Shown: positions 4,162-60,543 of the stretch, one piece after another
Layout: the number at the start of each line of letters is the position of its first letter
Position numbering within the stretch: the stretch's first letter is position 1
Source of the DNA: a virus
DNA length: 64,000 bases
Virus record (IMG/VR): IMGVR_UViG_3300043485_000037
Coordinates: 12,489 to 76,488 of that record
Direction: 5' to 3' (one strand)
Notes under the pieces: generated by a model
Databases searched by the model: none
What the model saw: only the letters and a program-made list of their open reading frames with translations
What the model was told of the DNA's origin: nothing
Position numbers and translations under genes: made by a program

Positions 4162-5310
4162 ATGCTCGAAGAACAAGACAAGCTTTTGCCGGACCTGAAG
4201 CCGGACATCCTTCAGGAGTGGATAGGGATGCCCGACTTCAACATGGAGAACCTCATGTCGTGGCAGTCCACCGTGGTCCACTTCAAGTGCCAGAAGGACC
4301 GGGACGAGTTTGCCGCGCTCATCGGGCAGAAGCTGACCCCCAAGACCCGCAGCATCTGGTATCCCAAGGCGGAGATAGGCCACTTCGCGGGCAAGAGCTG
4401 GGAGAGTTCCCTGCCCCACCACCAGAAGGTCCCCCGGTATCCCATCTACATCATCAGCAAGGGGCGCTGGGAGAGCCGCAAGACCTCCAAGGCGTTGGAG
4501 AAGCTTGGCATTCCCTATTACATCGTGGTGGAGCCCCAGGAATACGACAACTATGCCTACTACATAGATGCGGCCAAGATACTGCGGCTGCCCAAGGAGA
4601 ACTACGGAGGAGGCTGCTCCATCCCGGCCCGGAACTTCTGCTGGGCCCACTCCCGGAGGCTCGGGGTGGCCCGCCACTGGGTGCTGGACGACAACATCGA
4701 GGGATTCTTCCGGCTCACCGACAATCTGAAGGTGCCCGTGGGAGACGGCATGATCTTCCGGGCTGCGGAGGAGTTCACGGACCGTTACGAGAACGTGGGC
4801 ATGAGTGGGTTCAACTACTTCATGTTCGCCCCGCGGAAGTCCCCGGACATCAAACCGTTCACGCTCAACACCCGCATCTATTCGTGCATCCTGCTGAGCA
4901 ACTCGATAGAGGACCCGGAGACGGAGAAGCCCTTTGCGTGGCGGGGCCGCTACAACGAGGACACGGACCTGTCCCTTCGGATCTTGAAGTCCGGGCTCTG
5001 CACGGTCCTCTTCAACGCATTCCTGGCCTTCAAGAACACCACGATGACCATGAAGGGAGGCAACACAGAGAGCCTCTATCAGAAGCAGGCCGGGTTCGAC
5101 GGGCGCCTGGAGATGGCCAAGAGCCTCAAGGCCCAGCATCCGCAGCACGTGAAGATCACGGAGAAGTGGCACAGGTGGCAGCACCACGTCGACTACTCCG
5201 GATTCACCCAGAAGCTGCGCAGGAAGCCGAACATCAAGGTGGAGAAGATCAAGAACAACTACGAGATGCACCTGAAGATCCAGCAGGGCAAGAGTGACCC
5301 GAAGATATAG
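4162..5310 (+). CDS. TET-associated (TAGT)/GREB1-like glycosyltransferase 2
   Basis: YPIYIISKGR, HWVLDDNI, RIYSCILL, WRGRYNEDTDLSLRILKSG; paralog of upstream gene. Confidence 0.8.
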   Translation: MLEEQDKLLPDLKPDILQEWIGMPDFNMENLMSWQSTVVHFKCQKDRDEFAALIGQKLTPKTRSIWYPKAEIGHFAGKSWESSLPHHQKVPRYPIYIISKGRWESRKTSKALEKLGIPYYIVVEPQEYDNYAYYIDAAKILRLPKENYGGGCSIPARNFCWAHSRRLGVARHWVLDDNIEGFFRLTDNLKVPVGDGMIFRAAEEFTDRYENVGMSGFNYFMFAPRKSPDIKPFTLNTRIYSCILLSNSIEDPETEKPFAWRGRYNEDTDLSLRILKSGLCTVLFNAFLAFKNTTMTMKGGNTESLYQKQAGFDGRLEMAKSLKAQHPQHVKITEKWHRWQHHVDYSGFTQKLRRKPNIKVEKIKNNYEMHLKIQQGKSDPKI

Positions 5311-5312
5311 GC

Positions 5313-5546
5313 ATGAGCAAGCCCAACATCCCGGAGGCCGAGCCCGAATACGACTACGGTGTGGCTGCTCCTCCCTTCTTCATCAGGAAGCGGAAGGACA
5401 AGACGGCCCCGGAGGTCCTGGTCCAGCGGGGAGCCAACGCGCCCAAGACCAACCAGGGCGACGCCATCATCAACGCGATGGCTCAGAGGATCCAAATCCT
5501 GCGAGCCGTCCAAACTCCGTCCCCAATCCCCAACCCATCAAAGTGA
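5313..5546 (+). CDS. hypothetical protein
   Basis: 77-aa ORF in the gene run. Confidence 0.55.
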   Translation: MSKPNIPEAEPEYDYGVAAPPFFIRKRKDKTAPEVLVQRGANAPKTNQGDAIINAMAQRIQILRAVQTPSPIPNPSK

Positions 5547-6016
5547 TGTTATACGAAGCGATAAGGACCCGTGAGGGTGAGAAGATCCGAGCCTGGGCCC
5601 GTCCCTCCGTCTACAATCCCGGCATAGAGGTCGGCTTGATGAAGGAGGTCCCGGCCCACGTGGTCCCCATCGAAGGGAAGCCGGGCGAGGTCCAGAACGT
5701 CCAGACCACCTACTACGACGCCAAGCTAGAGTGGGTGAAGGTGGAGCTGGGCACTGTCCAGCTGAACAACCCGCAGGGGATGGCCAACCTCCCGTATGAA
5801 TTGGCCCAGCAGCTCATGGACGTGCTTTGGGATGCGGGAGTCCGCCCGGCCGCGGCCAAGGCTTCCGTCGGCCAGCTCCAGGCCACCGAGAACCATCTGA
5901 AGGACCTCCAGACGATCAACGGGAAGCTGCTCGACAAGGTGCTCGAGAACCCGGCCTGGATCGCGATCGAGAAGATGACCGACTTCCGAACGAGCAAGGA
6001 CCCTCTCTCGCCGTGA
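5546..6016 (+). CDS. hypothetical protein
   Basis: MLYEAIRTREG..., overlaps upstream stop. Confidence 0.6.
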   Translation: MLYEAIRTREGEKIRAWARPSVYNPGIEVGLMKEVPAHVVPIEGKPGEVQNVQTTYYDAKLEWVKVELGTVQLNNPQGMANLPYELAQQLMDVLWDAGVRPAAAKASVGQLQATENHLKDLQTINGKLLDKVLENPAWIAIEKMTDFRTSKDPLSP

Positions 6017-6255
6017 CCGACCTGGATCGCATCCACAAGCTCAGGGTTGCCCTTCGCATGGCCGCGAACACATTCAAGCGTTACGAGCAGATCCACCTGA
6101 ACAAGGGGACCCCGGATGGGAAAACGAAGGCGCGAGAGAACAGCGAGCAAGCCGCCTATTTGGAGAAGGTCCTCAAGGAGACGGAAACCTTGCCCGCCGG
6201 GGGAGGAGCCACGGGCGGTGTTGTCCACCTGCCTCTCAGAAGGGTGGGAGAATGA
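6013..6255 (+). CDS. hypothetical protein
   Basis: GTGA overlap; YEQIHLNKGTPDG motif. Confidence 0.55.
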   Translation: MTDLDRIHKLRVALRMAANTFKRYEQIHLNKGTPDGKTKARENSEQAAYLEKVLKETETLPAGGGATGGVVHLPLRRVGE

Positions 6256-6296
6256 GCGAGAAGGAACTCATTAAGGTGGCCAAGTGATCCTCCGAG

Positions 6297-6503
6297 ATGA
6301 AAATAGCGATGGCCAAGCAGGGCCTTGCGATGCAGACAACCGGAAACACGGAGCAGGATGACGCTCATATCCACGATGCCGCAAGATCCACGTGCATGAT
6401 CGCTGCTGGGTTCTGCCCTAACGGGTGCGGAGAACTCCACGAGGTCGGCCAGCATCAGGTTTGCATCAAGTGCGGGTTTTCCTATCACCAAACAAGCATA
6501 TGA
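6297..6503 (+). CDS. small zinc-ribbon protein
   Basis: CPNGC...CIKCG. Confidence 0.5.
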   Translation: MKIAMAKQGLAMQTTGNTEQDDAHIHDAARSTCMIAAGFCPNGCGELHEVGQHQVCIKCGFSYHQTSI

Positions 6504-6676
6504 GCAGAACCTCCGGAGGACAATTCAAGTGCCCGGTCTGCGGGGAGACCGTGGGCACATACGGACGCTACCAGCACTACAACCGCCACGTGAAGGAAGG
6601 GAAGATGACCAAGGAGGCCAAGGCGGCTCGCTACGAGTTTTACATCAGCGGTCCCAACTACAGGAAGGCAGAATGA
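6500..6676 (+). CDS. C2H2-type zinc finger protein
   Basis: FKCPVCGETVGTYGRYQHYNRH. Confidence 0.6.
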   Translation: MSRTSGGQFKCPVCGETVGTYGRYQHYNRHVKEGKMTKEAKAARYEFYISGPNYRKAE

Positions 6677-10442: not shown

Positions 10443-11372
10443 ATGCGAAACGTCCCAATCGAATTCTTTCTCGTGGCCCAGACGCGGGTCAACCCGGAGG
10501 CCGTCAAGAGGTGGCTGGAGTTCCTCGGGGTCTCCGAAAAATACAACGACGACCTCTACGACTTGATGGATCCATTCCCGGACTCTGGATCCACCACGGA
10601 GGAAAACATCACGGACCCAGCTCTGCTCATAGCCCTGGCGGCCAAGCGCTGCTACAAATCATTTGAGCCCTCTCTGAATCCCAATCTCTCCAAGGTCAGA
10701 TCCGACTGGACGGAGTATCTGGACAACGTGCTCAAGTCCCGGCACGGCTCCGTCTGCGAGCACGCCAGCTACTCCTTCGCCATCGAGAACGTGAGCCGGG
10801 TCTTCACGGGGGAGATGAACCGGCACCGGGCCGGGGTGGCCGTCTCGGAAGGTTCGATGCGCTTCATCCGCTACGACGACATTCCCTCCTGGCTGCCCAC
10901 CTCCATCCAAGTGACTCCGGAGGAGGTCAGCCTGTATAACCAGGTCATGATGTATGACCCGTCCCACGACACCTATGACCGGGCCCACTTCGAGCTGGTC
11001 CGCAAGAAGATCCAATCGCAGGATGTCTTCAAGGAGGTCTACGAGTTTGTGGAGAGCCGCTACAAGAAGCTGACGGGCATCTGGAAGGATGAGCTGTCCC
11101 CGGAATCCAAGTTCAAGGCCAAGAAGCACGTGACCTCCATGATGCGGAGGATTGTCCCCATGGGCGTCGCGACCGGAGGAGTCTGGACCCTGAACATCAG
11201 AGCCTTGCGCCACATCATGGCCATGCGCGCCTCCGACGCGGCCGAGGAGGAAATCTTTCACGTGTGGTCCCGGATCGGCAAGGAGATGGTGACCCAGGAG
11301 CCTATGCTGATCGGAGCCGACTTCACCCAGACCGCGGAAGGCTTCTGGGTGCCCAAATACGACAAGATATGA
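10443..11372 (+). CDS. thyX: flavin-dependent thymidylate synthase
   Basis: HGSVCEH, VSRVFTGEMNRHR...SEGSMRF (RHR-X7-S-XR signature), NIRALRH. Confidence 0.93.
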   Translation: MRNVPIEFFLVAQTRVNPEAVKRWLEFLGVSEKYNDDLYDLMDPFPDSGSTTEENITDPALLIALAAKRCYKSFEPSLNPNLSKVRSDWTEYLDNVLKSRHGSVCEHASYSFAIENVSRVFTGEMNRHRAGVAVSEGSMRFIRYDDIPSWLPTSIQVTPEEVSLYNQVMMYDPSHDTYDRAHFELVRKKIQSQDVFKEVYEFVESRYKKLTGIWKDELSPESKFKAKKHVTSMMRRIVPMGVATGGVWTLNIRALRHIMAMRASDAAEEEIFHVWSRIGKEMVTQEPMLIGADFTQTAEGFWVPKYDKI

Positions 11373-11448: not shown

Positions 11449-11716
11449 ATGCCAAGACTAGTGCGCAACACAACACCGGACGGGTCCTGCAAATACGGGC
11501 TCGTGAGAATGGACAAGATTCGCCAGATGGATCCCACGCAGCGAAACGCGGTCCTCACCATGCTTCAGAAGCTGGATGACGGAACTCCAGGTCACCGTGG
11601 ACAAGCTCAAGCAGGCCATTGACAACGAGCGAGGGGTCCCGGAGAAGGCTGCCGATCTGGCCAACTTTGCAATGAAGGCATCACAATTATGGACAAAATC
11701 ACAGACTACCAGCTAG
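11449..11716 (+). pseudogene. frameshifted small gene (GKY-type N-terminus, AADLANFAM-type C-terminus)
   Basis: Two frames join if one G is removed at 11581-11582. Confidence 0.35.
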
Positions 11717-13038: not shown

Positions 13039-13064
13039 TTTACATCCAGGCTGGCAGCCGTTAC
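13039..13064 (+). promoter_or_regulatory. possible + strand copy of the phage promoter motif
   Basis: TTTACA-N12-GCCGTTAC resembles the minus-strand TTTACT-N13..15-GCCGTTAA copies. Confidence 0.3.
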
Positions 13065-13165
13065 CTTTCCGAATCATGACGGGGCAACCGACTGCGACGA
13101 CCCGGCTTGCCGGAGAGCGGACGTGTAAGACCCGGCCCGTGAGGGCTTGGCGCCCTACACCCTTT

Positions 13166-45398: not shown

Positions 45399-45631
45399 TC
45401 AATCCCAAATACCGTCAGGATGCTCCTCTTTCAGGGCTTCCATGTTTGCCTGGATGTAGCGGGCTACCTTGCCCTGGGCGGACCGGGCCTTGAGCTCATT
45501 CTTCAGGCCGTTCGTCCACAGCCAGTGGAGATAGGATGCGGGCACGTCCTGCATTTTTTAGTCCGCGCGGTGTAATACTTCCCGAACGGCATCACATCCA
45601 GGTCGGTCAGGGTAGGAAGCTCGTCTGCCAT
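45399..45631 (-). pseudogene. DUF3820-like protein split at an A6 run
   Basis: MPFGKY...K|MQDVPASYLHWLW joins if A6 (T 45554-45559) is A7. Confidence 0.6.
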
Positions 45632-47282: not shown

Positions 47283-47914
47283 TTTCGGACTGCTACGAAT
47301 GCTCGGTTTCGTTTGGAGATGATCTTGAAGCCCTCCTGGGTCAAAAACTTGTAGGCCCAGTCGACTTGATTCTCTCGGTCGGGGTGCGGGTGGAACTCTA
47401 TGAAGATGGAGTTGACCTGCCGGAGGTCCCCCGGCTTCAGGATGTCCAGGATGGGATATTCGCCACCCTCGATGTCCATTTTTAGGACCGTCGGCTTGAT
47501 CCGGGCCAGTTCTCCCCGGAAGTTCACGGCCGGAACGGTGACGGCCTTCTTGCGGTTCGGAGACGGGATGACGGAGTTCGCCCCGGAGAACCCGGACATT
47601 GTGAGCTGGACCTCCAACTCGTGGCCGGCCACGACCGCGTATTCGCAGATGCTGACCCGCGCTCCGTATCGTTCCATGTTCTCCCGGAGCAGCGCGGCGT
47701 TCTTGGGGGCAGCTTCGTAGCAGACGGCCCACTTGGCTCCCTGCTCCAGGGCCGCGGCTGTGAAGGTTCCGATGTAGGCACCGACGTCCATGATCGTGTC
47801 GCCCTTCCGGAGCGGGAGGAGGGCGAACGGGTTTGAGTTCCCGAGGTCTTTCTTCAGCCAAAAGGCCGAGGTCGGGATGTTGAAGCCCTTCGGGATCACT
47901 TCACCGTATTTCAT
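47279..47914 (-). CDS. FkbM-family methyltransferase (early arm)
   Basis: IMDVGAYIG, CYEAAPKN, LKMDIEGGE. Confidence 0.85.
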   Translation of the reverse strand: MKYGEVIPKGFNIPTSAFWLKKDLGNSNPFALLPLRKGDTIMDVGAYIGTFTAAALEQGAKWAVCYEAAPKNAALLRENMERYGARVSICEYAVVAGHELEVQLTMSGFSGANSVIPSPNRKKAVTVPAVNFRGELARIKPTVLKMDIEGGEYPILDILKPGDLRQVNSIFIEFHPHPDRENQVDWAYKFLTQEGFKIISKRNRAFVAVRK

Positions 47915-48242
47915 ATGCGTTCGGGACCGGGTTCTTGAACTTGCCGCAGATCGGCTGGATCATCGCCTGGCAATACAGCGGCTTCTTCTTGCTCGCCCTG
48001 TAGGTCACGGTCTTGTGGCCGTTCTGCAGGGTGACCGTTTCCGTTATCGTCACCATCTTCAGGCCGGGGGATCCGATGGGCCGGTCCGGGAGACCGGGGA
48101 GCCGGCGGGTGCCGAGCATCTTCCAGCCGAAACTGGACTCGCCCGGCACCGTTTGCATCACCAGCTCCTCCACGAAGGCCAGGATGTGTGTGTCGTAGTC
48201 CTCCGGGTTGAAGAACTCGTTCGAGTCGGTGATCGCGTTCAT
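47901..48242 (-). CDS. hypothetical protein
   Basis: MNAITDSNEFFNPEDY... Confidence 0.5.
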   Translation of the reverse strand: MNAITDSNEFFNPEDYDTHILAFVEELVMQTVPGESSFGWKMLGTRRLPGLPDRPIGSPGLKMVTITETVTLQNGHKTVTYRASKKKPLYCQAMIQPICGKFKNPVPNAYEIR

Positions 48243-48243
48243 A

Positions 48244-48381
48244 TCAGTTTCCGGGGATGAAGACTTTGACCGCATATTGGTTTGTCCCGACGACGTAACC
48301 CGTCCAGCCGCCGTTTACTTTTGTGAGCTCGTCGAGCTTGACCGTCCGACCCGACTTCGTTTTCATCGTTCTTTTCATCAT
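48244..48381 (-). CDS. small protein directly after promoter copy A
   Basis: MMKRTMKTKSGRTVKLDEL...FIPGN*; read manually. Confidence 0.5.
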   Translation of the reverse strand: MMKRTMKTKSGRTVKLDELTKVNGGWTGYVVGTNQYAVKVFIPGN

Positions 48382-48440
48382 GCCTTACTTAACGGCATCC
48401 GATGGGAAAAGTAAAGGGAAAATGTAAACAATTTTTACTC
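48382..48440 (-). promoter_or_regulatory. phage promoter motif copy A
   Basis: TTGTTTACATTTT...TTTACT-N13-GCCGTTAA-N7-ATGATG. Confidence 0.7.
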
Positions 48441-48466
48441 TTTTCAAGTCCCTCTGAATGGGGCAT

Positions 48467-48686
48467 TTAGCGTGACCCAGTCTTCCGGTAGAGCGGGGCA
48501 CACCGGGGGCAATAGTGGAACGTCTCGGCCCGGCTCCCGGAGGGCTTAGTTGGGTTGAGCATCTTTCCAGCCGTGGTCGAGACCCTCAATGAGAGGCTGG
48601 AGGGTGTTGGTGATCAAGAGCCGGGCTGGGCACTTCTCGCCTCGGATCTTGCCGTCGCAGTATAGGATTGTCGTTTGGATGAGCAT
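48467..48686 (-). pseudogene. small CDG...GW...HYCPRC protein split by one extra A
   Basis: Frames join if AAA (T 48564-48566) is AA. Confidence 0.45.
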
Positions 48687-48746
48687 CGGCGGCTGCCCTC
48701 CCCCGGCTGATGATGAAAGATGCCGGGAAGGGCAGGGAGCCGAACC

Positions 48747-49862
48747 TCAGTTCAGCCCAAGGTCTTTTGGGGAGAGGAGCATGACTTCGCCGCCCCACTT
48801 CTCGAACTCCACGGCCCGGTCGTAGGAGGTCAGGTCCTGGGCCGTCCGGGTCACGGCGTTCAGGATGCCGTATTGGGTCATGTCGCCGCCTTTGATGAGG
48901 TGGTTCAGCACGGAGTCCTTCTCGCCTTCCGTCCAACCGAAGCGGGTGTTCAGCACCTCGACGGTCTCCAGGGGCTTGTCAAGATCCACGGCCGTGGTCC
49001 GGTTCAGGCCCTTCACGATCGCGTCGAACTTCTCGCGGGTGAACATGGCCTTCATTAGGTCCTGCACCTTGAGCCAGAATGCCTTGTCGTCGGCCTTCCG
49101 GGTCTCGTCGCTGAACAGCTCCGTGGCTTCGCTCTCGTCGAAGAGGTCCCCGAAGCCGCCCGTGCCCTTGCGGCCGATGTGGTTCTGCTTGACGATGTTC
49201 TCTGCCACCATCCCGTTGGTGCAGCGGAGCGTGTAGATGAGGTGCCGGACCTGGAGGGAACCGGCCCCGACTTCCGAGTTGGAGATGATGAGGCCCGCCT
49301 GGACTTGGTCGCCGACCTTCGGGACCTCGGCGAGCATCTTCGGGGAGACGGCCTGGATGTAGAGGCGCTGCTCCGTCACGGCCGCGGACTTGACCTCGAG
49401 GCCCATGTCGTGGAGCCGGGGAAGAATCTTCTCGGCGATGTCCGCATTGTCCAGGGGACGGTAGCGGTCGCTGAGGAAGGCGCGCGCGATGTTGGATCCA
49501 TTTTGGAGGGTGCGCAGCATGTGCTTCTCCGGGTTGGCGTTGAACCAGTGGTTCACGTTGGTCGCGAGGAGGTCCGGAGCCTGCTCGATCATCCGGTCCG
49601 CATACTTCGAGGGAATCTGGACCCGGCCCCCGATCTGCTGGAGGCAGTTGCGGGTGGGTTCGAATTCGACTTCCTTCTTGTCCAGGTTGAACCGGAGGAC
49701 CGGCTGGAGGCGCATCAACTTCTTGCCCTCCACGATCCGCCCGGTGTCCCGCTGGGTGACTCCGACCCGGATGTTCCGGGTGTCCGCCAGATAGTCTTTC
49801 TTGTGGTCGCGGTCGCTGAGGATTTGCCGTGCGACCTCGCTGAGTTCCATTCCTTTGATCAT
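48747..49862 (-). CDS. DUF932-family protein
   Basis: ARAFLSDRYRPLDN, GLIISNSEVG, CTNGM. Confidence 0.85.
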   Translation of the reverse strand: MIKGMELSEVARQILSDRDHKKDYLADTRNIRVGVTQRDTGRIVEGKKLMRLQPVLRFNLDKKEVEFEPTRNCLQQIGGRVQIPSKYADRMIEQAPDLLATNVNHWFNANPEKHMLRTLQNGSNIARAFLSDRYRPLDNADIAEKILPRLHDMGLEVKSAAVTEQRLYIQAVSPKMLAEVPKVGDQVQAGLIISNSEVGAGSLQVRHLIYTLRCTNGMVAENIVKQNHIGRKGTGGFGDLFDESEATELFSDETRKADDKAFWLKVQDLMKAMFTREKFDAIVKGLNRTTAVDLDKPLETVEVLNTRFGWTEGEKDSVLNHLIKGGDMTQYGILNAVTRTAQDLTSYDRAVEFEKWGGEVMLLSPKDLGLN

Positions 49863-49981
49863 ATGTTTCTGTCTCGGTTCGATCCTCCGCTTAATGGCCT
49901 CGCCGTGCGTCGTGCCCGGTTTATCCGGCGGCTGAATCGTTCCGTCTCTGACCTTATTCTCGCAGGGCAGGGACGGGGCGA

Positions 49982-50176
49982 TTACTTGCCCATGGGTCTG
50001 TGGAGAAACTGCATCGCGTCCAGCTCCTTCTGGAAGGCGGCTTTGTGGACCGCGCAGATGCCGTGGCTGATCTTCCGGCCGCTCAATTCCGGGAAGGCCG
50101 CGATGATCTGCGCGCCGGGATAGCACCAACCGCAGCAGCTCACCACGTTGTCTTCCATTAACGGCTTCTCGGTCAT
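49982..50176 (-). CDS. small Cys/His protein
   Basis: MTEKPLMED...CCGWC...SHGICAVH; start follows promoter copy D. Confidence 0.55.
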   Translation of the reverse strand: MTEKPLMEDNVVSCCGWCYPGAQIIAAFPELSGRKISHGICAVHKAAFQKELDAMQFLHRPMGK

Positions 50177-50210
50177 ACCTATCCTAACGGCATTCGATGG
50201 GAAAACTTTA
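50177..50210 (-). promoter_or_regulatory. phage promoter motif copy D
   Basis: TAAAGTTT-N11-GCCGTTAG-N7-ATG; shares TTTTCCCATCG(G/A)ATGCCGTTA with copy A. Confidence 0.6.
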
Positions 50211-50369
50211 GCGCTCATTTGGCCAGCTCGAAAAATGACCAGCCCGACGAGGAACAGCAAGGCCCAGAGGAGGAGGACCGGGAGCGACATGTTGGCCCGG
50301 AACCGGCTGGCCCACCGGACGAAGATCAAGGCCGCCACGAATTCGAAACTCTTTCGGAACAGGTTCATG

Positions 50370-50546
50370 TTAGCCTTCCATCGTGGCCGCCACGTCGGCG
50401 ATGGCCCGGTAAAGGTTCAGGAGTTTGGCGCGCAGGATCGGATCCTTATCGTCGCGGGAGATGTTGCCGGCGATGCGTTCGGCGCCCTCTTGGATTGCCT
50501 CGGTCAATTCCGCATTCGTGTGGCTCTTCATCAGTTCATTCATCAT
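50370..50546 (-). CDS. small helical protein
   Basis: MMNELMKSHTNAEL...; starts 7 nt after promoter copy C. Confidence 0.55.
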   Translation of the reverse strand: MMNELMKSHTNAELTEAIQEGAERIAGNISRDDKDPILRAKLLNLYRAIADVAATMEG

Positions 50547-50606
50547 GGGTGTATTAACGGCTAAAAAGAGCACACAAGTAAAGCGAAAAAGTGAACAATT
50601 TTACTA
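50547..50606 (-). promoter_or_regulatory. phage promoter motif copy C
   Basis: TTGTTCACTTTTT...TTTACT-N15-GCCGTTAA-N7-ATGATG. Confidence 0.65.
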
Positions 50607-50630
50607 CTTGTGGATGGGGCACTTAGGGCG

Positions 50631-50668
50631 AAAAAGAAAAGTCCCTCCGGGCGAGCGACCGCGGAGGG
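50631..50668 (-). terminator. rho-independent terminator
   Basis: CCCTCCG/CGGAGGG stem followed by ACTTTTCTTTTT on the minus strand. Confidence 0.65.
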
Positions 50669-50697
50669 GTGACGAGCTGGGGCCGGGGCGGCCGGAC

Positions 50698-51087
50698 TTA
50701 CAGCTCGTTGATCTTGTCGACGGCTTCGTCGAGGCCGTCCTTGATTTCGGTCAGCTTCTCGCCGAGTTCGTCCAGGGAGAGGTCCCCGATGTTGTCGTCC
50801 TGGAGGTCCGTGGCGGCCGTCTCCAGCTTCTCCACGACTTCGTCGAGGGCTTCCTTGGCCGTGTTGAGTTCGTCGGCCTTGTCCCCTTCCTTCTGCTTCT
50901 CGGACATATTGTCTAACTTCTCCGAGATTTCGTCCCGTATGCCTTCGACGGCGGTCTTGACGTCGTCGATCTGGCCGGCGAGGGTCTTCAGGGTCTCCTT
51001 CGGATCCGCCAGCTTGCCCAGCTGCTCCATGGCCGCGTTGAGTTCTTCGGTTTGCTTTGTGAGTGTTTTCTTTTGCGATGCGTTCAT
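50698..51087 (-). CDS. acidic helical-bundle protein
   Basis: D/E-rich heptads. Confidence 0.7.
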   Translation of the reverse strand: MNASQKKTLTKQTEELNAAMEQLGKLADPKETLKTLAGQIDDVKTAVEGIRDEISEKLDNMSEKQKEGDKADELNTAKEALDEVVEKLETAATDLQDDNIGDLSLDELGEKLTEIKDGLDEAVDKINEL

Positions 51088-51104
51088 AATTGTTCCTATA
51101 TTCG

Positions 51105-51983
51105 TTAATCCATCCGCGCGAGCTTTCGGAGCATCCTGACCTCCTTCGGGCTTGCGCTTCCGGGGTCTTCGGCGTCAAGTTCTACCACGTGGGTCTCGCC
51201 GGGGAAAGGGGCAAGTTCGGCCGCGAGTTCCCCGGCCAGCCGCTGGGCGTTCCGGGATGAGTCGAAGCAGATGTAGCGATAGGGAATCTTTGAGAGGAGC
51301 CGGACCTGGGCGGGCGAGTAGCCGGTCCCCAGGGTTCCTACCGTTCCCGGCCCAACGTTCCAGACATCGGACGGCCCCTCCACGACGATGGCCGAGTGCA
51401 GGACAAAGTCCAATCCATACAGGACCTCCTTGTGGTTCATGGACTCCTCCTCCGGGGAGGCCGAGACGTAGCGCTGGGACTCCGGCACGTCGCCCACGGC
51501 CCTCGTCGTCCAACTGACTCTGTGGTCCCGGTGGACGATCGGGATGTAGAGCCGCCAGGCCAACCGGCCCCCGAGACGGCCGATGCCCTCCAGCTCCCAC
51601 GTCCGGGCCAGTGCCTCTGGATCTTCGTAGCCCCGGCCGCGGAGATATTCGAGGTGGTGCGGCAGGAGGTCTCCCCGTCCGGCGGGCTCCACCAACTTGA
51701 GCCGCTCTTGGGCCAGTTCCCGTGGGAGGAGTTCCCGGCCCTTGAAGAATGAGGAGGCAACCGCATACGGGACCCCGAGTTGGAGCAGGGTTCGGATGAC
51801 TCCGTGTCCCCGGCACTTCCAGCAGTTGAAGTATCCGCGGGAAAGGTTGTAGCCGAGGTGGTAGTTGTCCGAGGTGCAGAACGGGCATCGTCGGATGGCG
51901 ATCCATCCGGGCCGCGCATGATGGTTCTCCCCTGCCTGGGCGAATTCAACGCCCCGGTCCCGGAGGACTTCCTGGATGGTCAT
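51105..51983 (-). CDS. DNA primase (Zn finger plus TOPRIM)
   Basis: CPFC...FNCWKC, IVVEGPSD, ICFDSS. Confidence 0.85.
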   Translation of the reverse strand: MTIQEVLRDRGVEFAQAGENHHARPGWIAIRRCPFCTSDNYHLGYNLSRGYFNCWKCRGHGVIRTLLQLGVPYAVASSFFKGRELLPRELAQERLKLVEPAGRGDLLPHHLEYLRGRGYEDPEALARTWELEGIGRLGGRLAWRLYIPIVHRDHRVSWTTRAVGDVPESQRYVSASPEEESMNHKEVLYGLDFVLHSAIVVEGPSDVWNVGPGTVGTLGTGYSPAQVRLLSKIPYRYICFDSSRNAQRLAGELAAELAPFPGETHVVELDAEDPGSASPKEVRMLRKLARMD

Positions 51984-52363
51984 AGCCGTCCCGGCCAGGA
52001 TCGGTCTTTTTCTTCTTCGCTTTGCCAGAGTTGATAGACCCCGGCTGCGTTCATTCCTTCTTCCCGTGTGATGGTTTGGCATCCTTCTTCCGAATACTTC
52101 AGGAAGTGCCTCACCCGGTCTTGCTTTTCGAGCACTCTCATTGGATCCGAATTGAACGAAGACAGGTTCCCTTCGGCCACGTTAAGATCCAGGACGGCTC
52201 GGAGGTCCACCAGCTCTCCCTCAAGCAACTGACGGTTCGTCCCGTCCTCCGGCTTCCACCGTTCATCCAGCCCGAAGCGGACGGCCTTGCAGGTCCGGTG
52301 GATTATCTCCGCGCATTCCTCAATGATCAACAGTAAGAAGTAAACCTTGCGTGATACTTTCAT
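51980..52363 (-). CDS. MazG-like nucleotide pyrophosphohydrolase
   Basis: IEECAEII...KAVRFG...LEGELVDL. Confidence 0.7.
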   Translation of the reverse strand: MKVSRKVYFLLLIIEECAEIIHRTCKAVRFGLDERWKPEDGTNRQLLEGELVDLRAVLDLNVAEGNLSSFNSDPMRVLEKQDRVRHFLKYSEEGCQTITREEGMNAAGVYQLWQSEEEKDRSWPGRL

Positions 52364-52497
52364 TTTTTGTCGTGGTTTTCTCCGGGACGGAATTTGATTA
52401 TGGTGGTGGGGTGGGTGGGCTGGCCGTCTCCGATGTCCGGGTCCTCCGGGATGGTGGAGCACCCGGTCAGCAAGAGGAGCAGCAGCAGGAATCTCAT
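52360..52497 (-). CDS. small lipoprotein
   Basis: MRFLLLLLLLTG-C lipobox; read manually. Confidence 0.6.
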   Translation of the reverse strand: MRFLLLLLLLTGCSTIPEDPDIGDGQPTHPTTIIKFRPGENHDKK

Positions 52498-52763
52498 GCC
52501 TTATTCTCGTCGCACTTGTCGGCCTCCTCCGGCTTCATCTTGTCAATGCTGATCCAGTCCTCGCCGGTGTTCACGGCCGTGGAGAACCGACGCATGAGAA
52601 TGATCTGGGCGTCCCGCATGGTCACTCCGTGGTTGGCGCAGGCAGTCTTGAAGGTCCGGTGGGTGGATTCCGGGATGTCCTTGAGGTGCATGGCTTTGTG
52701 ATGCATCTTCTCCTCTTCGTTCTTCCGGACCGGGGCCACGAAGCTGTTCTTTGGTCTGCTCAT
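52494..52763 (-). CDS. ribbon-helix-helix DNA-binding protein
   Basis: MHLKDIPESTHRTFKTACANHGVTMRD. Confidence 0.65.
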   Translation of the reverse strand: MSRPKNSFVAPVRKNEEEKMHHKAMHLKDIPESTHRTFKTACANHGVTMRDAQIILMRRFSTAVNTGEDWISIDKMKPEEADKCDENKA

Positions 52764-54148
52764 ATTCCTTCTTTCTTGGCAATCTTGTCGATCAGCTTGC
52801 CGAATAAATCGTACTGGACATCCTGGATGCTTTTCTTGCCGTCGAGGACGGCCTTCAGGTCCAGGGTTCTCTCCCGGAGGATCATCATCCATTCGTATTC
52901 CACCGTGTTCATGGCGTAGAGATACCAGATCATCACGGACTTCGTCTGCCCGATCCGGTGCACCCGGTCCTGGCCCTGGAGGAGGTCCCCCGGAGTCCAC
53001 GGGGGATCCAAGGAAACCATGTTGGAGGCCCGCTGGAGGTTGAGGCCCACGCCCGCGGCCCTCCAGTTGCCCCACAAGTTGAGTATCTTTGCGATGTTGG
53101 TGAAGGACCGGACGGCCTCGGTGCGCAACTTCCCGGTCACGCGGCCGTCCACCACGACGGAGGTCCGGGGGAAAGCCTCCCGGAGCTTGTCGATCACGAA
53201 CGTGTGGCCGGTCATCCCCACCAACTTCTCGCCGGGTTGGGCCACGTGGAATTCCTTGACGAAGTTGATGGTCTGGGGCATCCGAAGGTGGGCGCAGAGC
53301 CGCAGCAGGTAGCCGATCTTGACCATGGATTCCGCCCGCTTGGCCCGAGCCGCCCTGGCCGGGGACTTCTCCCGGAGCCACATCAGGAATGAGTTCTTGG
53401 CCTTGTCGTATTCCTTGAAGGCCGCCGGCCCGAGGTGGACCGGGATCATCTTGTGGATCTTCTTCGGGAGTTCCGGGGCCACGTCCTCTTTCAGCCGGCG
53501 GATCATCACGTGCTTGACCAGGATGCTGTGGAGCTCGTCCTTGTTCTCGGCTCCGTCGTAGCGCCAGCCCCAGAAGGTGTGCCGTGGCTTGCAGTAGCGC
53601 CACGCAAACTGGTGGAAGTCCGGGAACAAGTCCGGACGGATGATGTTGAGGACGGCCCAGAGCTGGACCGGCTTGTTGGTCATCGGGGTCCCGGAGAGTC
53701 CCAGGACCGACTGGGCATGCTTGGCCAGGTGCTTCGACGCCTTCGTCCTCCGGGCTTGCGGGTTGGAGATGTATTGGCACTCGTCGAAGACAACCACCTT
53801 GGGTGGGCACTTCATCAAGGCCCGGAGCCAGAACCACAGGATGTCGTAGTTGATGATGAGAATCTTGTCCTGGTGGGTCCAGACTGAGTTCTGCTTGGGA
53901 CCCCGGCCTTCGAGGACCCGTGACTGGAGCCCAAACTTCTGCCGAGCCTCCATCTGCCAGTGATACTTGACGGAGGACGGGGTGACGATCACCACGGGAC
54001 GGTGGGCGTTGATGCGTGAGATCCACATCAGGGCTGATATTGTTTTCCCGGTTCCTTGGTCATCCGCCAGCAGAACCCTCCCGGCCATTCCGTAGATGCG
54101 TCGGACGCCATCTTCCTGGAACTTCCGGGGAGTGAAGTTAATAGCCAT
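52760..54148 (-). CDS. SNF2-family helicase
   Basis: LADDQGTGKT, FDECQ, LSGTP, GVGLNLQ, QDRVHRIGQ. Confidence 0.92.
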   Translation of the reverse strand: MAINFTPRKFQEDGVRRIYGMAGRVLLADDQGTGKTISALMWISRINAHRPVVIVTPSSVKYHWQMEARQKFGLQSRVLEGRGPKQNSVWTHQDKILIINYDILWFWLRALMKCPPKVVVFDECQYISNPQARRTKASKHLAKHAQSVLGLSGTPMTNKPVQLWAVLNIIRPDLFPDFHQFAWRYCKPRHTFWGWRYDGAENKDELHSILVKHVMIRRLKEDVAPELPKKIHKMIPVHLGPAAFKEYDKAKNSFLMWLREKSPARAARAKRAESMVKIGYLLRLCAHLRMPQTINFVKEFHVAQPGEKLVGMTGHTFVIDKLREAFPRTSVVVDGRVTGKLRTEAVRSFTNIAKILNLWGNWRAAGVGLNLQRASNMVSLDPPWTPGDLLQGQDRVHRIGQTKSVMIWYLYAMNTVEYEWMMILRERTLDLKAVLDGKKSIQDVQYDLFGKLIDKIAKKEGI

Positions 54149-54521
54149 GCAGCTCTTTCCTCCTCCGGAGCATTTCCTTCACGTGCAGTTTTATGTGCGC
54201 ACTTTGACCTGGGAGCACCTTGAGATTCTTCTTCGAGAAGTTCATCTTGTTGTCGTCTTTGTGGTGGACGATCTCGCCCTTTCTGAGCGGCCGTCCTAAC
54301 ATATCTTCGGCGATGGTCCGGTGGACGTGTCGGCCGTTCACCTTGGGATATGAATGACCCGGCTTGGCATTCGCCTTCATCTGATCGCCCCGGACCTTCC
54401 CGCCCTTCCGTCCCAGTCGGGTCTGTCGGCATTTGAAGCTGCAACAGACGACCACCTTCGCCCGGCTTGGGGTAACCGAGAACGGAGCCGAACAGACTGC
54501 GCAGATCAACTGAACAGGCAT
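54138..54521 (-). CDS. HNH endonuclease with N-terminal Zn finger
   Basis: CAVC...CSFKC; HVHRTIAE...IVHHKDDNKMN...NL. Confidence 0.85.
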   Translation of the reverse strand: MPVQLICAVCSAPFSVTPSRAKVVVCCSFKCRQTRLGRKGGKVRGDQMKANAKPGHSYPKVNGRHVHRTIAEDMLGRPLRKGEIVHHKDDNKMNFSKKNLKVLPGQSAHIKLHVKEMLRRRKELHGY

Positions 54522-55051
54522 GACTTGATTTCGTGGATCATGATTTGCTGGTGCGTGTGGTCGTAGCCTTGAAAGGCCATCTCCTCGCACGCGAACTGGA
54601 GGACCTCCCGCGGTTTGGTCTCCCCGTCCGGGAGAGGGTGGTCGATGATGAGCGAAAGCATCCGGCGGGCTTCGGGGGAGAGGTCCTCGCATTGTTCGAC
54701 GAGGGAGTTCCGGAAGGCCGCCGATGATTGCTCCTCCGTCTCGGCCGGGGGCAGCATCTCGTCCTTGATTTCCTCCACGAAGACCAGACGGCCCTTGAAC
54801 TTCTCCCGGATGTAGTGGAGCAAACAGTTGTTCACCTTCAGGTAACACCAGGAGGAGAACTTGCCCCCGGATGGATGGGAGCCGGTCCACTTCTCGCACG
54901 CCTGCATGAATCCAAGGCAGGCCTGGGAGTAGAACTCGTCGTACGCTTGCTGGTAGTCCATCCCTCCATACTTGCGGGCGAACGCATGCGCCCGGCTCCT
55001 CAGTATGTCAATGACTCGATTCAGTGCCCTCTCTCGTTCTCTTTTGCTCAT
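54506..55051 (-). CDS. sigma-70 region 2-like phage transcription factor
   Basis: EFYSQACLGFMQACEKW...GKFSSWCY.KV.N.L..YIR resembles region 2.2-2.4. Confidence 0.65.
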   Translation of the reverse strand: MSKRERERALNRVIDILRSRAHAFARKYGGMDYQQAYDEFYSQACLGFMQACEKWTGSHPSGGKFSSWCYLKVNNCLLHYIREKFKGRLVFVEEIKDEMLPPAETEEQSSAAFRNSLVEQCEDLSPEARRMLSLIIDHPLPDGETKPREVLQFACEEMAFQGYDHTHQQIMIHEIKSCLFS

Positions 55052-55104
55052 GTTGGTTAGATGATAATTTATGTAAGCAAGCTTATCTGTCCGTATTGAC
55101 ACGT

Positions 55105-55140
55105 AAAGAAAAAACCTCCGTCATTCTGCGACGGAGGTTT
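55105..55140 (-). terminator. rho-independent terminator
   Basis: AAACCTCCGTC/GACGGAGGTTT 11-bp stem plus TTTTTTCTTT. Confidence 0.8.
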
Positions 55141-55180
55141 GCGAGGTTCTGGCCGGGTATATATACCGGCCAGAATGAGG

Positions 55181-56026
55181 TTACTTGGCCGCCGGAGCCG
55201 GGGCCGTCTTGGCTTTGGCCGCTTTGGCCGCCTTCAGAGCCGCGATCTGCTCTGCCGGGGTCTTGCCCGCGGGCTTGGCTGCCGGAGCCGGAGCGGCCTT
55301 GGCCGTCGCGGTCTTCGGAGCTGGCTTCGCCGCGGCCGGTTTGGCTTCGATCTTCGGCTTCGCGGGAATCTGATCCTTCGTGAGCGGGGCCAGGACGAAG
55401 TCCTTGTGATACTTCGGGCGCACACCGCGATAGACGTTCAGCTTGATCGTCTGGTCGGAGCACTCCACGCCCTCCTTCTCGAACATCGCGCGAATCTCCG
55501 GAGTCGTCCAGGATCCACCCGATTCGCTGGCCAGCTTGCGCACGACCGCCGCGATCGAGAACCCGGTGTCCTTGAAGGTCCCGAGACTGCCGGCTCGGAT
55601 TCCGGGGGTGCCAGTGCCCTCTTTTTTGGCGCCCTTGGTGGAGGGCTTCTTCGTGGTGGATTTGGTTTTCATATCTTCGGCTGATTGTTGTTTACGGTTG
55701 TTGATGTGATCCGCGAGGCCCTGGCGACCAAGGCTCCGGGTGACTTGCACTAGTGAGTCCGGGCTGATGTTGATGCTGTCCTTGCCCGCCGCGAAGCGGA
55801 TGACCTTGTCGTCACCTTCCCGCGGGACAATGTTCGAATCTAACGGGGCTGCGCATGCGCGTGATTCGTTGAGGAACCACACCACGTATTCCACACCCTT
55901 CTCTCCCACATAGACGTCGCCGACGCGGAGCTTGTGCAGCCCTTCGTCATTGATCTTGCGGGAAATGGGGGCCGTGGTTTTCGCCGTCGCTGGGACGGTC
56001 GCCGCTGCTTTGTTGGATTCGTTCAT
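55181..56026 (-). CDS. DNA-binding protein with wHTH-like domain and histone-H1-like A/K/P tail
   Basis: WTTPEIRAMFEKEG...TIKLNV; tail KPAAAKPAPKTATAKAAPAP... Confidence 0.7.
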   Translation of the reverse strand: MNESNKAAATVPATAKTTAPISRKINDEGLHKLRVGDVYVGEKGVEYVVWFLNESRACAAPLDSNIVPREGDDKVIRFAAGKDSINISPDSLVQVTRSLGRQGLADHINNRKQQSAEDMKTKSTTKKPSTKGAKKEGTGTPGIRAGSLGTFKDTGFSIAAVVRKLASESGGSWTTPEIRAMFEKEGVECSDQTIKLNVYRGVRPKYHKDFVLAPLTKDQIPAKPKIEAKPAAAKPAPKTATAKAAPAPAAKPAGKTPAEQIAALKAAKAAKAKTAPAPAAK

Positions 56027-56081
56027 ATTCGTCTTTCTTTCTTAGTTCGTGGCCGGGGTTTCTTTTACCGGTCACTCATCA

Positions 56082-56144
56082 TGTGTATACTTAACGGCAC
56101 GGTGGCATTAAAAGTAAAGGAAAAATGTAAACAATTTTTTACTC
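56082..56144 (-). promoter_or_regulatory. phage promoter motif copy B
   Basis: TTGTTTACATTTT...TTTACT-N14-GCCGTTAA-N8-ATGATG. Confidence 0.7.
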
Positions 56145-56699
56145 TAGGATGGCCGCTAGGGAAGCGGGGTCCACAGTGCTCAGGAATTTGTCCAGCGTCA
56201 TCCCAACGAAATCATACGTCCCAAAACGATAGCGGAACACGGGCGGCTTGATCAACTCCGGCTGCCAGGAGTGCAGGGGCTGGTCCTTTAGGAGGCACCG
56301 GGCGGAGAAGAACGCCGTGGCCTTCCTCCGGTCCCGCTTGCAGATGAGCAGCCAGTCGTTCCCCACCTTGTCGGCGGCCGTCTTGGCTTGGTCCAGGGTG
56401 GCCAGGAAGGGATGGCAGGCGAGGGAGCCGGAGCAGTCGAGGAGGTCTCCGGGGTCTCCGTGGCTCCGGCCCCGCTTGAGCTCGACGGTGAACAACTTCA
56501 GAAGCGGCTGGCCGATGGGATCCAGTGCGCAGATGTCTCCGTCTCCCCCGGCCGTGCGGAGACCTTGCCGGAATCGCACCGTGGATCTGCCCCCGGACAT
56601 GGAGGACCTCCAGAAAATGTCATCGCGGCTGTCGTAGGTCCACCACTTCGACAACCGCTTGCAAATCTCCCGTTCAAAACTCGAACCCTTGCCGCTCAT
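56139..56699 (-). CDS. Holliday junction resolvase (Hjc-like PD-(D/E)XK)
   Basis: KGSSFEREI...GDI...VELKR. Confidence 0.85.
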   Translation of the reverse strand: MSGKGSSFEREICKRLSKWWTYDSRDDIFWRSSMSGGRSTVRFRQGLRTAGGDGDICALDPIGQPLLKLFTVELKRGRSHGDPGDLLDCSGSLACHPFLATLDQAKTAADKVGNDWLLICKRDRRKATAFFSARCLLKDQPLHSWQPELIKPPVFRYRFGTYDFVGMTLDKFLSTVDPASLAAILE

Positions 56700-57577
56700 C
56701 TTTCCTCTTTCAGCATCTTACGGTTGAACACAGGTGCGCGTCCAACCAAAGATTTGATGCCGAGACGGGAGCAGACGTCGTTCCATCCCTTCTGGCTGAT
56801 CTGCTCTGCGTCATCCCAGTCCGGAGTCGGGGTTGGCGGATCCGCCAGCGGCAGTTCAACCAAGCCCCGGTTCCGTTTCACGATCTCGGCGGAGCCTTCG
56901 GACATGATCGTCTTGTAGATGGCCGCGGTCTTGGGCAGTTGCTTCCTGATGAATTTCACGGCTGTGATCTCGCCGACTCCGGGGATGCCGGGGACCCCGT
57001 CGGTTTGGCAACCGGCCATCGCCTTGACCATGGCCCACTGCCAAGGTTGGATGCCGTAGGACTGCCGGAACCACTCCTCGGTGAGCAGCTTCCGTTTGTT
57101 CGGGCAATACATGAGGACGTTGGGAGCCAGCAGTTGATACATGTCCGCGTCGGAGGTCACGAGGATCACTTCGTCGTCCACCTCCGCGGTCTTGGCGATC
57201 TTGGCCATGATGTCGTCGCTCTCCCATCCCGGATAGTAGAAGATGTTGCGGAATCCAATCTGCCTCAGGTAGGAGCATCGCAGAGCGTCGATCTGGCGGC
57301 AGAGGTCTCCCCGCGCCTTGGTCTTCAGTGGATCCTCCTGCTCGTGGCGCCGCTTCTCCTTGTAGCCCCGGAAGAATATCTGGCGATATGATTGGGAGTC
57401 CTCGAAGCAGAACGCGATGCGGTCGGTCTGGAAGGTCTCCTTCAGGAACCCGATCTGCTTCAGGAATCCGTAGATGACCCCGGTCGCGATGCCGTGAAAG
57501 CTGAGGTCCTTCTGGGCGTGGAAGGCTCGGTGGCAAAGATAGTGGCAATCCAAAATTAACAGGGGCTTTGGCTTCAT
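56696..57577 (-). CDS. 5'-3' exonuclease (FEN/RNase H, PolI N-terminal type)
   Basis: ILDCHYLCHRAFH, ESDDIMA, TSDADMYQL, DGVPGIPGVGEITA. Confidence 0.9.
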   Translation of the reverse strand: MKPKPLLILDCHYLCHRAFHAQKDLSFHGIATGVIYGFLKQIGFLKETFQTDRIAFCFEDSQSYRQIFFRGYKEKRRHEQEDPLKTKARGDLCRQIDALRCSYLRQIGFRNIFYYPGWESDDIMAKIAKTAEVDDEVILVTSDADMYQLLAPNVLMYCPNKRKLLTEEWFRQSYGIQPWQWAMVKAMAGCQTDGVPGIPGVGEITAVKFIRKQLPKTAAIYKTIMSEGSAEIVKRNRGLVELPLADPPTPTPDWDDAEQISQKGWNDVCSRLGIKSLVGRAPVFNRKMLKEER

Positions 57578-60511: not shown

Positions 60512-60543
60512 GAGGACCGGAGCCATAGCGAACCCCGGTCCTC
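60512..60543 (-). terminator. hairpin between SSB and recombinase genes (weak terminator or processing site)
   Basis: GAGGACCGG/CCGGTCCTC stem followed by CCTTTGTTTG. Confidence 0.4.

Follow-up and report, generated by a model that had tools for sequence, protein, structure and literature searches.

A bipartite element with GCCGTTA at its core stands directly ahead of start codons in the genome of an uncultured soil phage, of which we analysed 64,000 nucleotides (the window; bases 12489-76488 of one 78,033-nt virus contig, IMG/VR record IMGVR_UViG_3300043485_000037, GC 60%). Five full copies occur per 75.6-kb genome, A, B, C and D inside the window and E outside it, all on the minus strand. 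From their sequence, these elements are very likely promoters, their reader likely belongs to the sigma-28 class of alternative sigma factors, and their mRNAs are probably leaderless or near-leaderless. As to the reader itself, we favour, at a probability of roughly 0.45, the phage's own 181-aa sigma factor, which would take over after host sigma-A.

Results

GCCGTTA elements in the window and in relatives

The original prediction had described elements A to D as a repeated promoter fixed just upstream of ATG, and all four are found on the minus strand:

48382-48440, minus strand: promoter A (class I), with the dyad GTAAAAATTGTTTAC at 48438-48424, the -35 region CTTTACTTT at 48416-48408, the -10 box GCCGTTAA at 48396-48389, then 7 nt and the ATG at 48381; 47.4 bits by position weight matrix (PWM)
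50177-50210, minus strand: promoter D (class II), with TAAAGTTT at 50210-50203, N11, GCCGTTAG at 50191-50184, then 7 nt and the ATG at 50176; PWM 39.4 bits
50547-50604, minus strand: promoter C (class I, longer spacer), with GTAAAATTGTTCAC at 50604-50591, CTTTAC at 50583-50578, the -10 box GCCGTTAA at 50561-50554, then 7 nt and the ATG at 50546 of a 58-aa open reading frame (ORF, 50370-50546)
56083-56142, minus strand: promoter B (class I), with the dyad GTAAAAAATTGTTTAC at 56142-56127, CTTTAC at 56119-56114, the -10 box GCCGTTAA at 56098-56091, then 8 nt and the ATG at 56082; footprint in six genomes

Within the window GCCGTTAR is observed five times against 1.23 expected, always on the minus strand, a count reached by 1 of 100 shuffles, and the motif thus exceeds background frequency, as the prediction supposed. 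For the 23-nt upstream box the count is three, with 0 expected. Extending the search to the whole genome and to relatives, as had been suggested, added the fifth copy, E, and 21 sites in five relatives. Copy E (genome 10222-10280) lies in a divergent junction of 73 nt and 42% GC that heads the minus-strand block, and is retained at the same junction in the closest relative. Promoters A and E differ solely by one A in an A-run, and the 45-aa ORFs behind them share ~67% identity across the first 30 residues.

The relatives were reached via the DUF932 protein and the sigma-like protein. Five of them are syntenic, come from other soil or metagenome assemblies (L003, L004, L005, L006 and L009/L150) and encode a sigma protein 46-86% identical to that of the window. 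Anchoring on GCCGTTA brings the total for the six genomes to 26 sites. Every one is on the early strand; none occurs on the late strand in the sequence available for these genomes. The overall consensus is CTWWAS-N14-(A)TGCCGTTA followed by the start codon, and the block invariant among sites is (A)TGCCGTTA. The spacer between CTWWAS and GCCGTTA measures 14 nt in 23 of 26 sites, and the spacing between the two octamers is 11 nt in 23 of 26, with one additional nucleotide at B and at one L004 site and two at C. The start codon (ATG at 25 sites, GTG at one) follows GCCGTTA at a distance of 8 nt (12 sites), 9 nt (7), 7 nt (3), 10 nt (2) or 11 nt (2); measured from the octamer the distance is 6-10 nt, with a mode of 7. 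A PWM trained on the 23 regular sites, with 20 shuffled genomes as background, scores true sites at 30-50 bits compared with a best of 12.8 in the shuffled genomes; with this matrix the rest of the genome, its late strand and four more distant relatives yield no further site. At the orthologous B site of the six genomes the A/T-rich dyad, CTTTACTT, TGCCGTTA and ATG(A/G)TGAGTG are kept while the remainder drifts. Scanning IMG/VR with the class I pattern gave 0 matches, and with the class II-plus-ATG pattern a single chance match that overlaps a TATAAT promoter. The fifth GCCGTTAA of the window (50158-50165), which lies inside the 64-aa gene behind D, lacks a -35 element and is not conserved in L009, was read as a chance occurrence.

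Two promoter classes

The sites fall into two classes. Class I (17 sites) combines CTTTACT with an A/T-rich dyad centred near -48/-50; its -35 element, TTTACTTT, agrees with the sigma-28 consensus at 5 of 8 positions, deviating at positions 2, 3 and 5. The 9 class II sites, D among them, lack an upstream dyad and read CT(A/T)AAGT(T/A)T; written as octamers they are TAAAGTTT-N11-GCCGTTAA, with a -35 match of 7-8 out of 8. An operator, TGT-N2-ACA, had been proposed upstream of the promoters. A conserved A/T-rich dyad does exist there, yet the proposed limits were wrong: the symmetric element reads GTAAA-N5/6-TTTAC in the window, and in L004-L006 it reads TGAAA-N4-TTTCA. In our proposal this dyad would serve as an UP element or activator site. 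Directly upstream of several class I promoters in relatives there is also a short conserved hairpin, AAGTGCCC-CATCCACAA-GGGCAtCT (L003 8530-8560, L009 14090-14120, L005 8560-8590), which could be an RNA 3' end or a protein site; its counterpart in the window (50606-50625, minus strand, at site C) has a degraded 3' arm.

At several dyad-plus-TTTAC sites a sigma-A-type -10 box takes the place of GCCGTTA. This is TAAGGT in L004 (9669-9722), TGaTACTTT in L005 (9617-9673) and, in a lineage whose sigma is ~35% identical, TGaTATGTT in L132 (2600-2690) and TGgTAGTCT in L151 (5555-5625). Judged by the aligned sites, one promoter class has evidently replaced the other at fixed positions in the course of evolution.

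It is conceivable that the host primary sigma, sigma-A, reads the GCCGTTA sites themselves, with TTTACT as -35, TTAAGT or TAAGTA as -10, GCCG as an extended -10-like element or a phage-factor site, and the dyad as an UP element. The class I dyad with its TTTAC is indeed the module that bears a sigma-A -10 at orthologous or neighbouring sites (L004 9669, L005 9617), the dyad-plus-TTTACA modules of L132 and L151, including their equivalents of B, carry sigma-A -10 boxes, and TTTACR is also the -35 of the promoter of the phage sigma operon. Against this, class I sites have no TAnnnT hexamer at 16-19 nt from TTTACT, a sigma-70 scan of the region yields nothing above chance, class II lacks a sigma-A -35 while displaying a perfect sigma-28 -35 at the exact spacing, and TAAGTA as -10 would put +1 past the A of the conserved ATG. 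We regard sigma-A as an improbable reader of these sites.

Likeness to sigma-28 promoters

The published sigma-28 consensus is TAAAGTTT-n11-GCCGATAA (PMC2859248). GCCGTTA(A/T/G), present at 26 of 26 sites, matches the -10 octamer GCCGATAA at 7 of 8 positions, and class II matches the complete consensus at 14-15 of 16 positions with exact spacing. Within the Pseudomonas aeruginosa fliC complex, the octamer GCCGATAA extends from -15 to -8, and its A at -11 is flipped (PMC12784957). The objection that a T in place of this flipped base rules out a true sigma-28 promoter was considered and dropped, since GCCGTTAA precedes flagellar genes in bacteria. A scan of one genome per prokaryote species with TAAAGTTT-N11-GCCGTTAA matched in at least 120 places; the matches listed belong, by record title, mostly to flagellated groups (Melainabacteria, Burkholderiales, Gammaproteobacteria), and the next gene encodes flagellin, FlgM or FliT in 19 of 120 among the matches listed, an unselected count. 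Pfam searches of ten downstream genes, chosen partly by eye, identified FlgM twice, flagellin three times, FliT and FlhB. Likewise, in five Melainabacteria genomes (G003-G007), each with a FliA gene above the NCBIfam cut-off, GCCGTTAA and GCCGATAA are about equally frequent, mostly as (A)TGCCGWTAA. Given that GCCGTTAA stands in front of bacterial flagellar genes, class II is a natural sigma-28 promoter variant; at the level of sequence, nothing sets the class II phage promoters apart from natural flagellar promoters. The sigma-28-like character assigned to the motif from the outset is thereby borne out.

Taken as a whole, the phage elements share with bacterial sigma-28 (FliA/SigD/WhiG) class-3 promoters the 11-nt spacer, the -10 octamer, including its form GCCGTTAA, the preceding (A)T and, in class II, the -35 octamer, and the predicted phage start likewise lies 6-8 nt past the octamer. 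They differ in that the bacterial promoters sit in the flagellar regulon and the copies described here in a phage genome, in the T that occupies the flipped A-11 position at 26 of 26 sites, where bacterial sigma-28 promoters mix A and T, and in the start codon, which adjoins the promoter in the phage and lies mostly 20-100 nt downstream in the scanned bacteria. Class I resembles the activator-assisted aer promoter of Escherichia coli, a sigma-28 promoter with a weak -35 that is activated by CRP from a site centred at -49.5 (PMC2859248); the class I dyad is similarly placed. Mutations of the aer -35 at positions 1, 3 and 5 strongly reduce activity (PMC2859248), and the class I -35 deviates at 2, 3 and 5.

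Could the elements be something other than promoters, such as a translational or RNA-level signal, or a recombination or mobile cassette repeated ahead of start codons? A and E do look like a duplicated cassette of element plus small gene, and the element always adjoins a start codon. Their bipartite architecture with fixed spacing, however, equals that of a known promoter class; the upstream region is A/T-rich, terminators lie directly upstream of two units, there is no Rfam match, and between genomes conservation is confined to the -35, -10 and ATG blocks. We therefore consider a non-promoter role very improbable. An extracytoplasmic function (ECF, group 4) promoter, with AAC in the -35, N16-17 and CGT in the -10, was also tried and rejected: CGTT occurs at the right distance, but an AAC -35 is present in no site, region 2 of the phage sigma is nearer to groups 1-3, and no ECF sigma appears in its top 60 PDB matches.

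The same leaderless promoters may instead be read by the host flagellar sigma, FliA (sigma-28), in which case the phage sigma would serve other, for example late, targets and expression of the ORFan clusters would depend on a motile, FlgM-free host state. This is a serious alternative, if a tentative one. Class II is identical in kind to bacterial sigma-28 promoters (-35, N11 and the extra (A)T before GCCG), the same 27-nt pattern stands ahead of the flagellin, flgM, fliT and flhB genes across many taxa, and class I is laid out like the activator-dependent aer promoter, with a weak -35 and a site at -49.5 (PMC2859248). Yet all 26 sites have T where bacterial regulons mix A and T, and a lytic-type phage would thereby bind five units to a minor sigma under anti-sigma control. 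The reading also presupposes a host that bears FliA.

Predicted start sites and leaderless messages

In P. aeruginosa fliC the octamer spans -15 to -8 (PMC12784957), and +1 would therefore be the A of the ATG in the commonest arrangement of the phage; E. coli aer starts 6 bp past the octamer (PMC2859248), which would therefore give a 2-nt leader. The predicted +1 should thus be the A of the ATG or lie 1-2 nt ahead of it, a space too short for a Shine-Dalgarno sequence. The leaderless transcripts foreseen in the original prediction fit this sigma-28 geometry (PMC12784957, PMC2859248) as well as the 7-11 nt that separate GCCGTTA from ATG at 25 of 26 sites, the start sites themselves being predicted. 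A Shine-Dalgarno 4-mer core precedes 35% of 116 early-strand genes in L003-L009, compared with 18% at random positions, and many early-strand starts in these genomes are preceded by A-rich stretches such as AAGAAAGAAAGACGAAT. Sigma-A-type promoters of the lineage also stand 6-9 nt ahead of ATG (L004 9669, L005 9617, L151).

Leaderless phage transcripts have precedents in lambda cI, transcribed from PRM, and in the middle and late messages of Thermus phage P23-45. These likewise have +1 at the A of AUG and no Shine-Dalgarno sequence. They use primary-sigma -10 or extended -10 promoters, whereas the -10 here is of the sigma-28 type, although leaderless promoters of the sigma-A type, as in lambda cI and P23-45, are found in this lineage too (L004 9669).

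Two features of the B unit lie behind its promoter:

56065-56082, minus strand: mini-ORF (MMSDR, stop), which begins at the promoter-adjoining ATGATG of B
55181-56026, minus strand: gene for a 281-aa protein whose tail is rich in Ala, Lys and Pro; the unit has no other long gene

The 5-codon mini-ORF, already pointed out in the original prediction, is real. Orthologous ORFs in three relatives count 5, 17 or 19 codons; that of L003 continues in frame into the main gene, and those of L004 and L005 end in a stop codon that overlaps the main ATG (ATGA). This pattern fits ribosomes that would initiate at the promoter-adjoining ATG. The 281-aa product, previously called histone-like, has no match in Pfam or PHROG; its tail resembles those of H1-type and other bacterial histone-like proteins.

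The remaining features next to promoters A, C and D are as follows:

48244-48381, minus strand: 45-aa ORFan gene (MMKRT...), which opens at the ATGATG of A and has its paralogue behind E
49982-50176, minus strand: conserved 64-aa CxxC protein, starting at the ATG of D; the DUF932 gene is next (48747-49862)
50631-50668, minus strand: terminator-like hairpin (CCCTCCG...CGGAGGG) with a T-tract, immediately upstream of promoter C

The ORF upstream of D reads through the promoter in this genome; the corresponding called gene of L009 stops at 14802, at the D box.

The phage sigma gene and sigma-A-like promoters

The candidate reader is encoded close to promoter B:

54506-55051, minus strand: phage sigma-70-family protein, 181 aa, heading an operon with an SNF2 helicase and a primase-like gene
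55080-55107, minus strand: sigma-A-like promoter of the sigma operon, TTTACG at 55107-55102, N16, TAAGCT at 55085-55080
55112-55140, minus strand: strong intrinsic terminator, a 12-bp stem then T6 (z -6.1), closing the B unit ahead of the sigma gene

The protein matches Pfam Sigma70_r2 weakly (E ~8e-5, under the curated cut-off), and 49 of 60 family members match. Its profile finds region 2 of RpoD, SigA and RpoS in the PDB at E 6e-8 and FliA at 5e-5. An AlphaFold2 model (pLDDT 90.7) comprises two helical domains joined by a short linker of lower confidence, and all of its fold matches are sigma factors. Aligned by hhalign with Melainabacteria proteins, the phage sigma scores 94% with SigA and 80% with FliA, the matches spanning region 2 to region 4. 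Searches with the phage sigma in IMG/VR and in GTDB genome contigs revealed no relatives. In FliA, R80 contacts -12G (PMC12784957); the invariant K72 of the phage sigma aligns with R80, at a position where sigma-70 has W434, and by this alignment fits a sigma-28-like reading of the -10.

Two strong hairpins precede the sigma gene, the second being the 12-bp stem with T6, and the promoter-like sequence behind them is not of the GCCGTTA type. Its TTTAC is invariant in the six genomes, where the pattern is TTTACR-N16-18-T(A/T)AnnT, and the promoter is sigma-A-like in L132 and L151 as well. A further sequence of this kind, TTTACA-N17-TACCTT, has two exact copies against ~0.009 expected. One (window 13039-13067, plus strand) lies within the plus block just ahead of an ATG; the other (genome 8029-8057, minus strand, outside the window) precedes a helix-turn-helix (HTH)/replication operon, where the closest relative, L150, has TTTACA-N16-TAAAGT. 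From their sequence the two copies are likely host primary-sigma promoters. Two promoter-like classes were thus found, a few sigma-A-like promoters at the replication and sigma operons and five GCCGTTA promoters at ORFan clusters. A recurrent promoter motif on the late strand was looked for and not found.

Genome setting

The contig termini (genome 1-2398 and 75635-78033) share 2,399 nt at 99.96% identity; by this overlap the genome is circular or terminally redundant, and the unit is therefore ~75,634 bp. The plus-strand block is a long set of particle-building genes that opens with AAA_23 (P-loop ATPase) and metallophosphatase genes. The minus-strand, early or replication block runs from genome 10222 leftward, across the contig ends, to about window position 45400, and includes DNA polymerase A, a clamp-loader-like ATPase, RecA, a 5'-3' exonuclease and a PDDEXK nuclease, together with the SNF2 helicase, primase-like, DUF932 and FkbM methyltransferase genes and many small ORFans. 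The RecA start is preceded at 15 nt by a GC-rich hairpin of 13 bp (window 60512-60543, minus strand), and L004 has a hairpin at the same place. In L006 an intein (Pfam Intein_splicing) lies between the two SNF2 halves of the helicase (4285-6585); the window copy (52760-54148) has none. Megablast against phage records gave no match, nor did an Rfam scan of window 47500-57000.

Discussion

Which sigma factor reads the GCCGTTA promoters? In the cascade that we favour, host sigma-A polymerase would first transcribe the sigma and replication operons from TTTACR-N16-18-TAnnnT promoters, the phage sigma would then steer core polymerase to the GCCGTTA promoters, and these would drive the clusters of small ORFans on the early, replication strand. 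The phage sigma is favoured because its gene and the motif co-occur, the gene being present in six of six motif-bearing genomes, and because that gene has an insulated promoter-like region of another type, conserved in the six genomes. It is favoured also because no other candidate target class for it was found in the genome, because T is fixed at 26 of 26 sites while bacteria mix A and T, and because the invariant K72 aligns with FliA R80. Finally, the L132/L151 lineage, with its ~35%-identical sigma, uses another motif: next to the start codons of its ORFan clusters stands CTAAGA-N14-GCTATAA-N9-ATG, with unchanged geometry, and this too points to a reader encoded by the phage. L151 carries four copies of CTAAGAATGGCAC-N6-GTAGCTATAAGG (10795-10840, 11325-11368, 11632-11676 and 13095-13140), 6-9 nt ahead of the ATG of small ORFs.

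Phage-encoded sigma factors are known to act in this manner. In phiEco32, of similar genome size class (~77 kb), sigma-70 serves the early genes, whereas the middle and late ones depend on gp36, whose consensus is AATGTA at -11.5 (PMC12276001). As proposed here, the cascades of phiEco32 gp36 and SPO1 gp28 transcribe early genes through the host primary sigma (PMC12276001, PMC13401047), and as with gp36 and gp28 core polymerase would be brought to a phage-specific motif by a small, very divergent phage sigma whose domains resemble sigma-2 and sigma-4. Unlike in those systems, the motif here is bipartite, equals the consensus of a cellular alternative sigma, and serves ORFan clusters on the replication strand rather than virion genes. 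No gp79-like partner was identified, and the present phage is known from sequence alone.

Several observations weigh against assigning the promoters to the phage sigma. By sequence, it is no FliA derivative and no closer to FliA than to SigA, and its model is read as having no sigma-3 domain. FliA uses R97 to contact the GC of the extended -10 and its sigma-3 residues H100, R148 and R104 to bind the template strand at -11/-12 (PMC12784957); near-perfect sigma-28 specificity in such a phage sigma would have to be convergent. Class II is a working flagellar promoter sequence in many bacteria, so that host FliA could be its reader. With its TATAAG, the L132/L151 motif may be no more than a sigma-A promoter. 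No late-strand promoter class was found, and the phage sigma may have late targets not seen by us. The distant DUF932 relatives L001, L002, L010 and L011 have neither motif nor sigma in their available parts, which are fragments or differ in GC content, and this co-absence, resting on fragments, is weak evidence. Among public sequencing runs matching window 48200-56200 no RNA runs are listed; the matching runs are two soil metagenome DNA runs only, possibly the source of the contig.

Host FliA as the reader is favoured by the phage sigma's lack of special kinship to FliA and by the genes served, small ORFans typical of the earliest class read by host polymerase. It is disfavoured by the failure of any other target motif to turn up for the phage sigma, and by the low use of Shine-Dalgarno sequences together with lineage-wide leaderless starts, which we read as a sign that the hosts are possibly not flagellated. 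A literature search found no report of sigma-28-dependent or sigma-28-type phage promoters, which likewise counts against host FliA and is not proof of absence. Phage-sigma-driven regulons and leaderless phage messages are already known; what is new is the identity with the flagellar consensus, the two grades of promoter and the exchange of one -10 box for another at orthologous sites.

It is conceivable, though on balance unlikely, that the flagellar sigma pathway carries part of the phage programme, with either host FliA firing the five leaderless units or the phage sigma acting as a FlgM-blind mimic of sigma-28. If host FliA fires them, infection and host motility would be coupled, an arrangement suited to a phage that adsorbs to flagella; a FlgM-blind mimic would fire the late flagellar promoters of the host too. 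Regardless, the motif pinpoints the start codon of each of 26 small genes that could not otherwise be annotated and employs, in GCCGTTAA, a widely used natural variant of the sigma-28 -10. With one 181-aa sigma, five promoters and two alternative readers, the phage sigma and FliA, the system is compact, and its relatives supply natural variants in which a sigma-A box stands in place of the -10 box at the same site.

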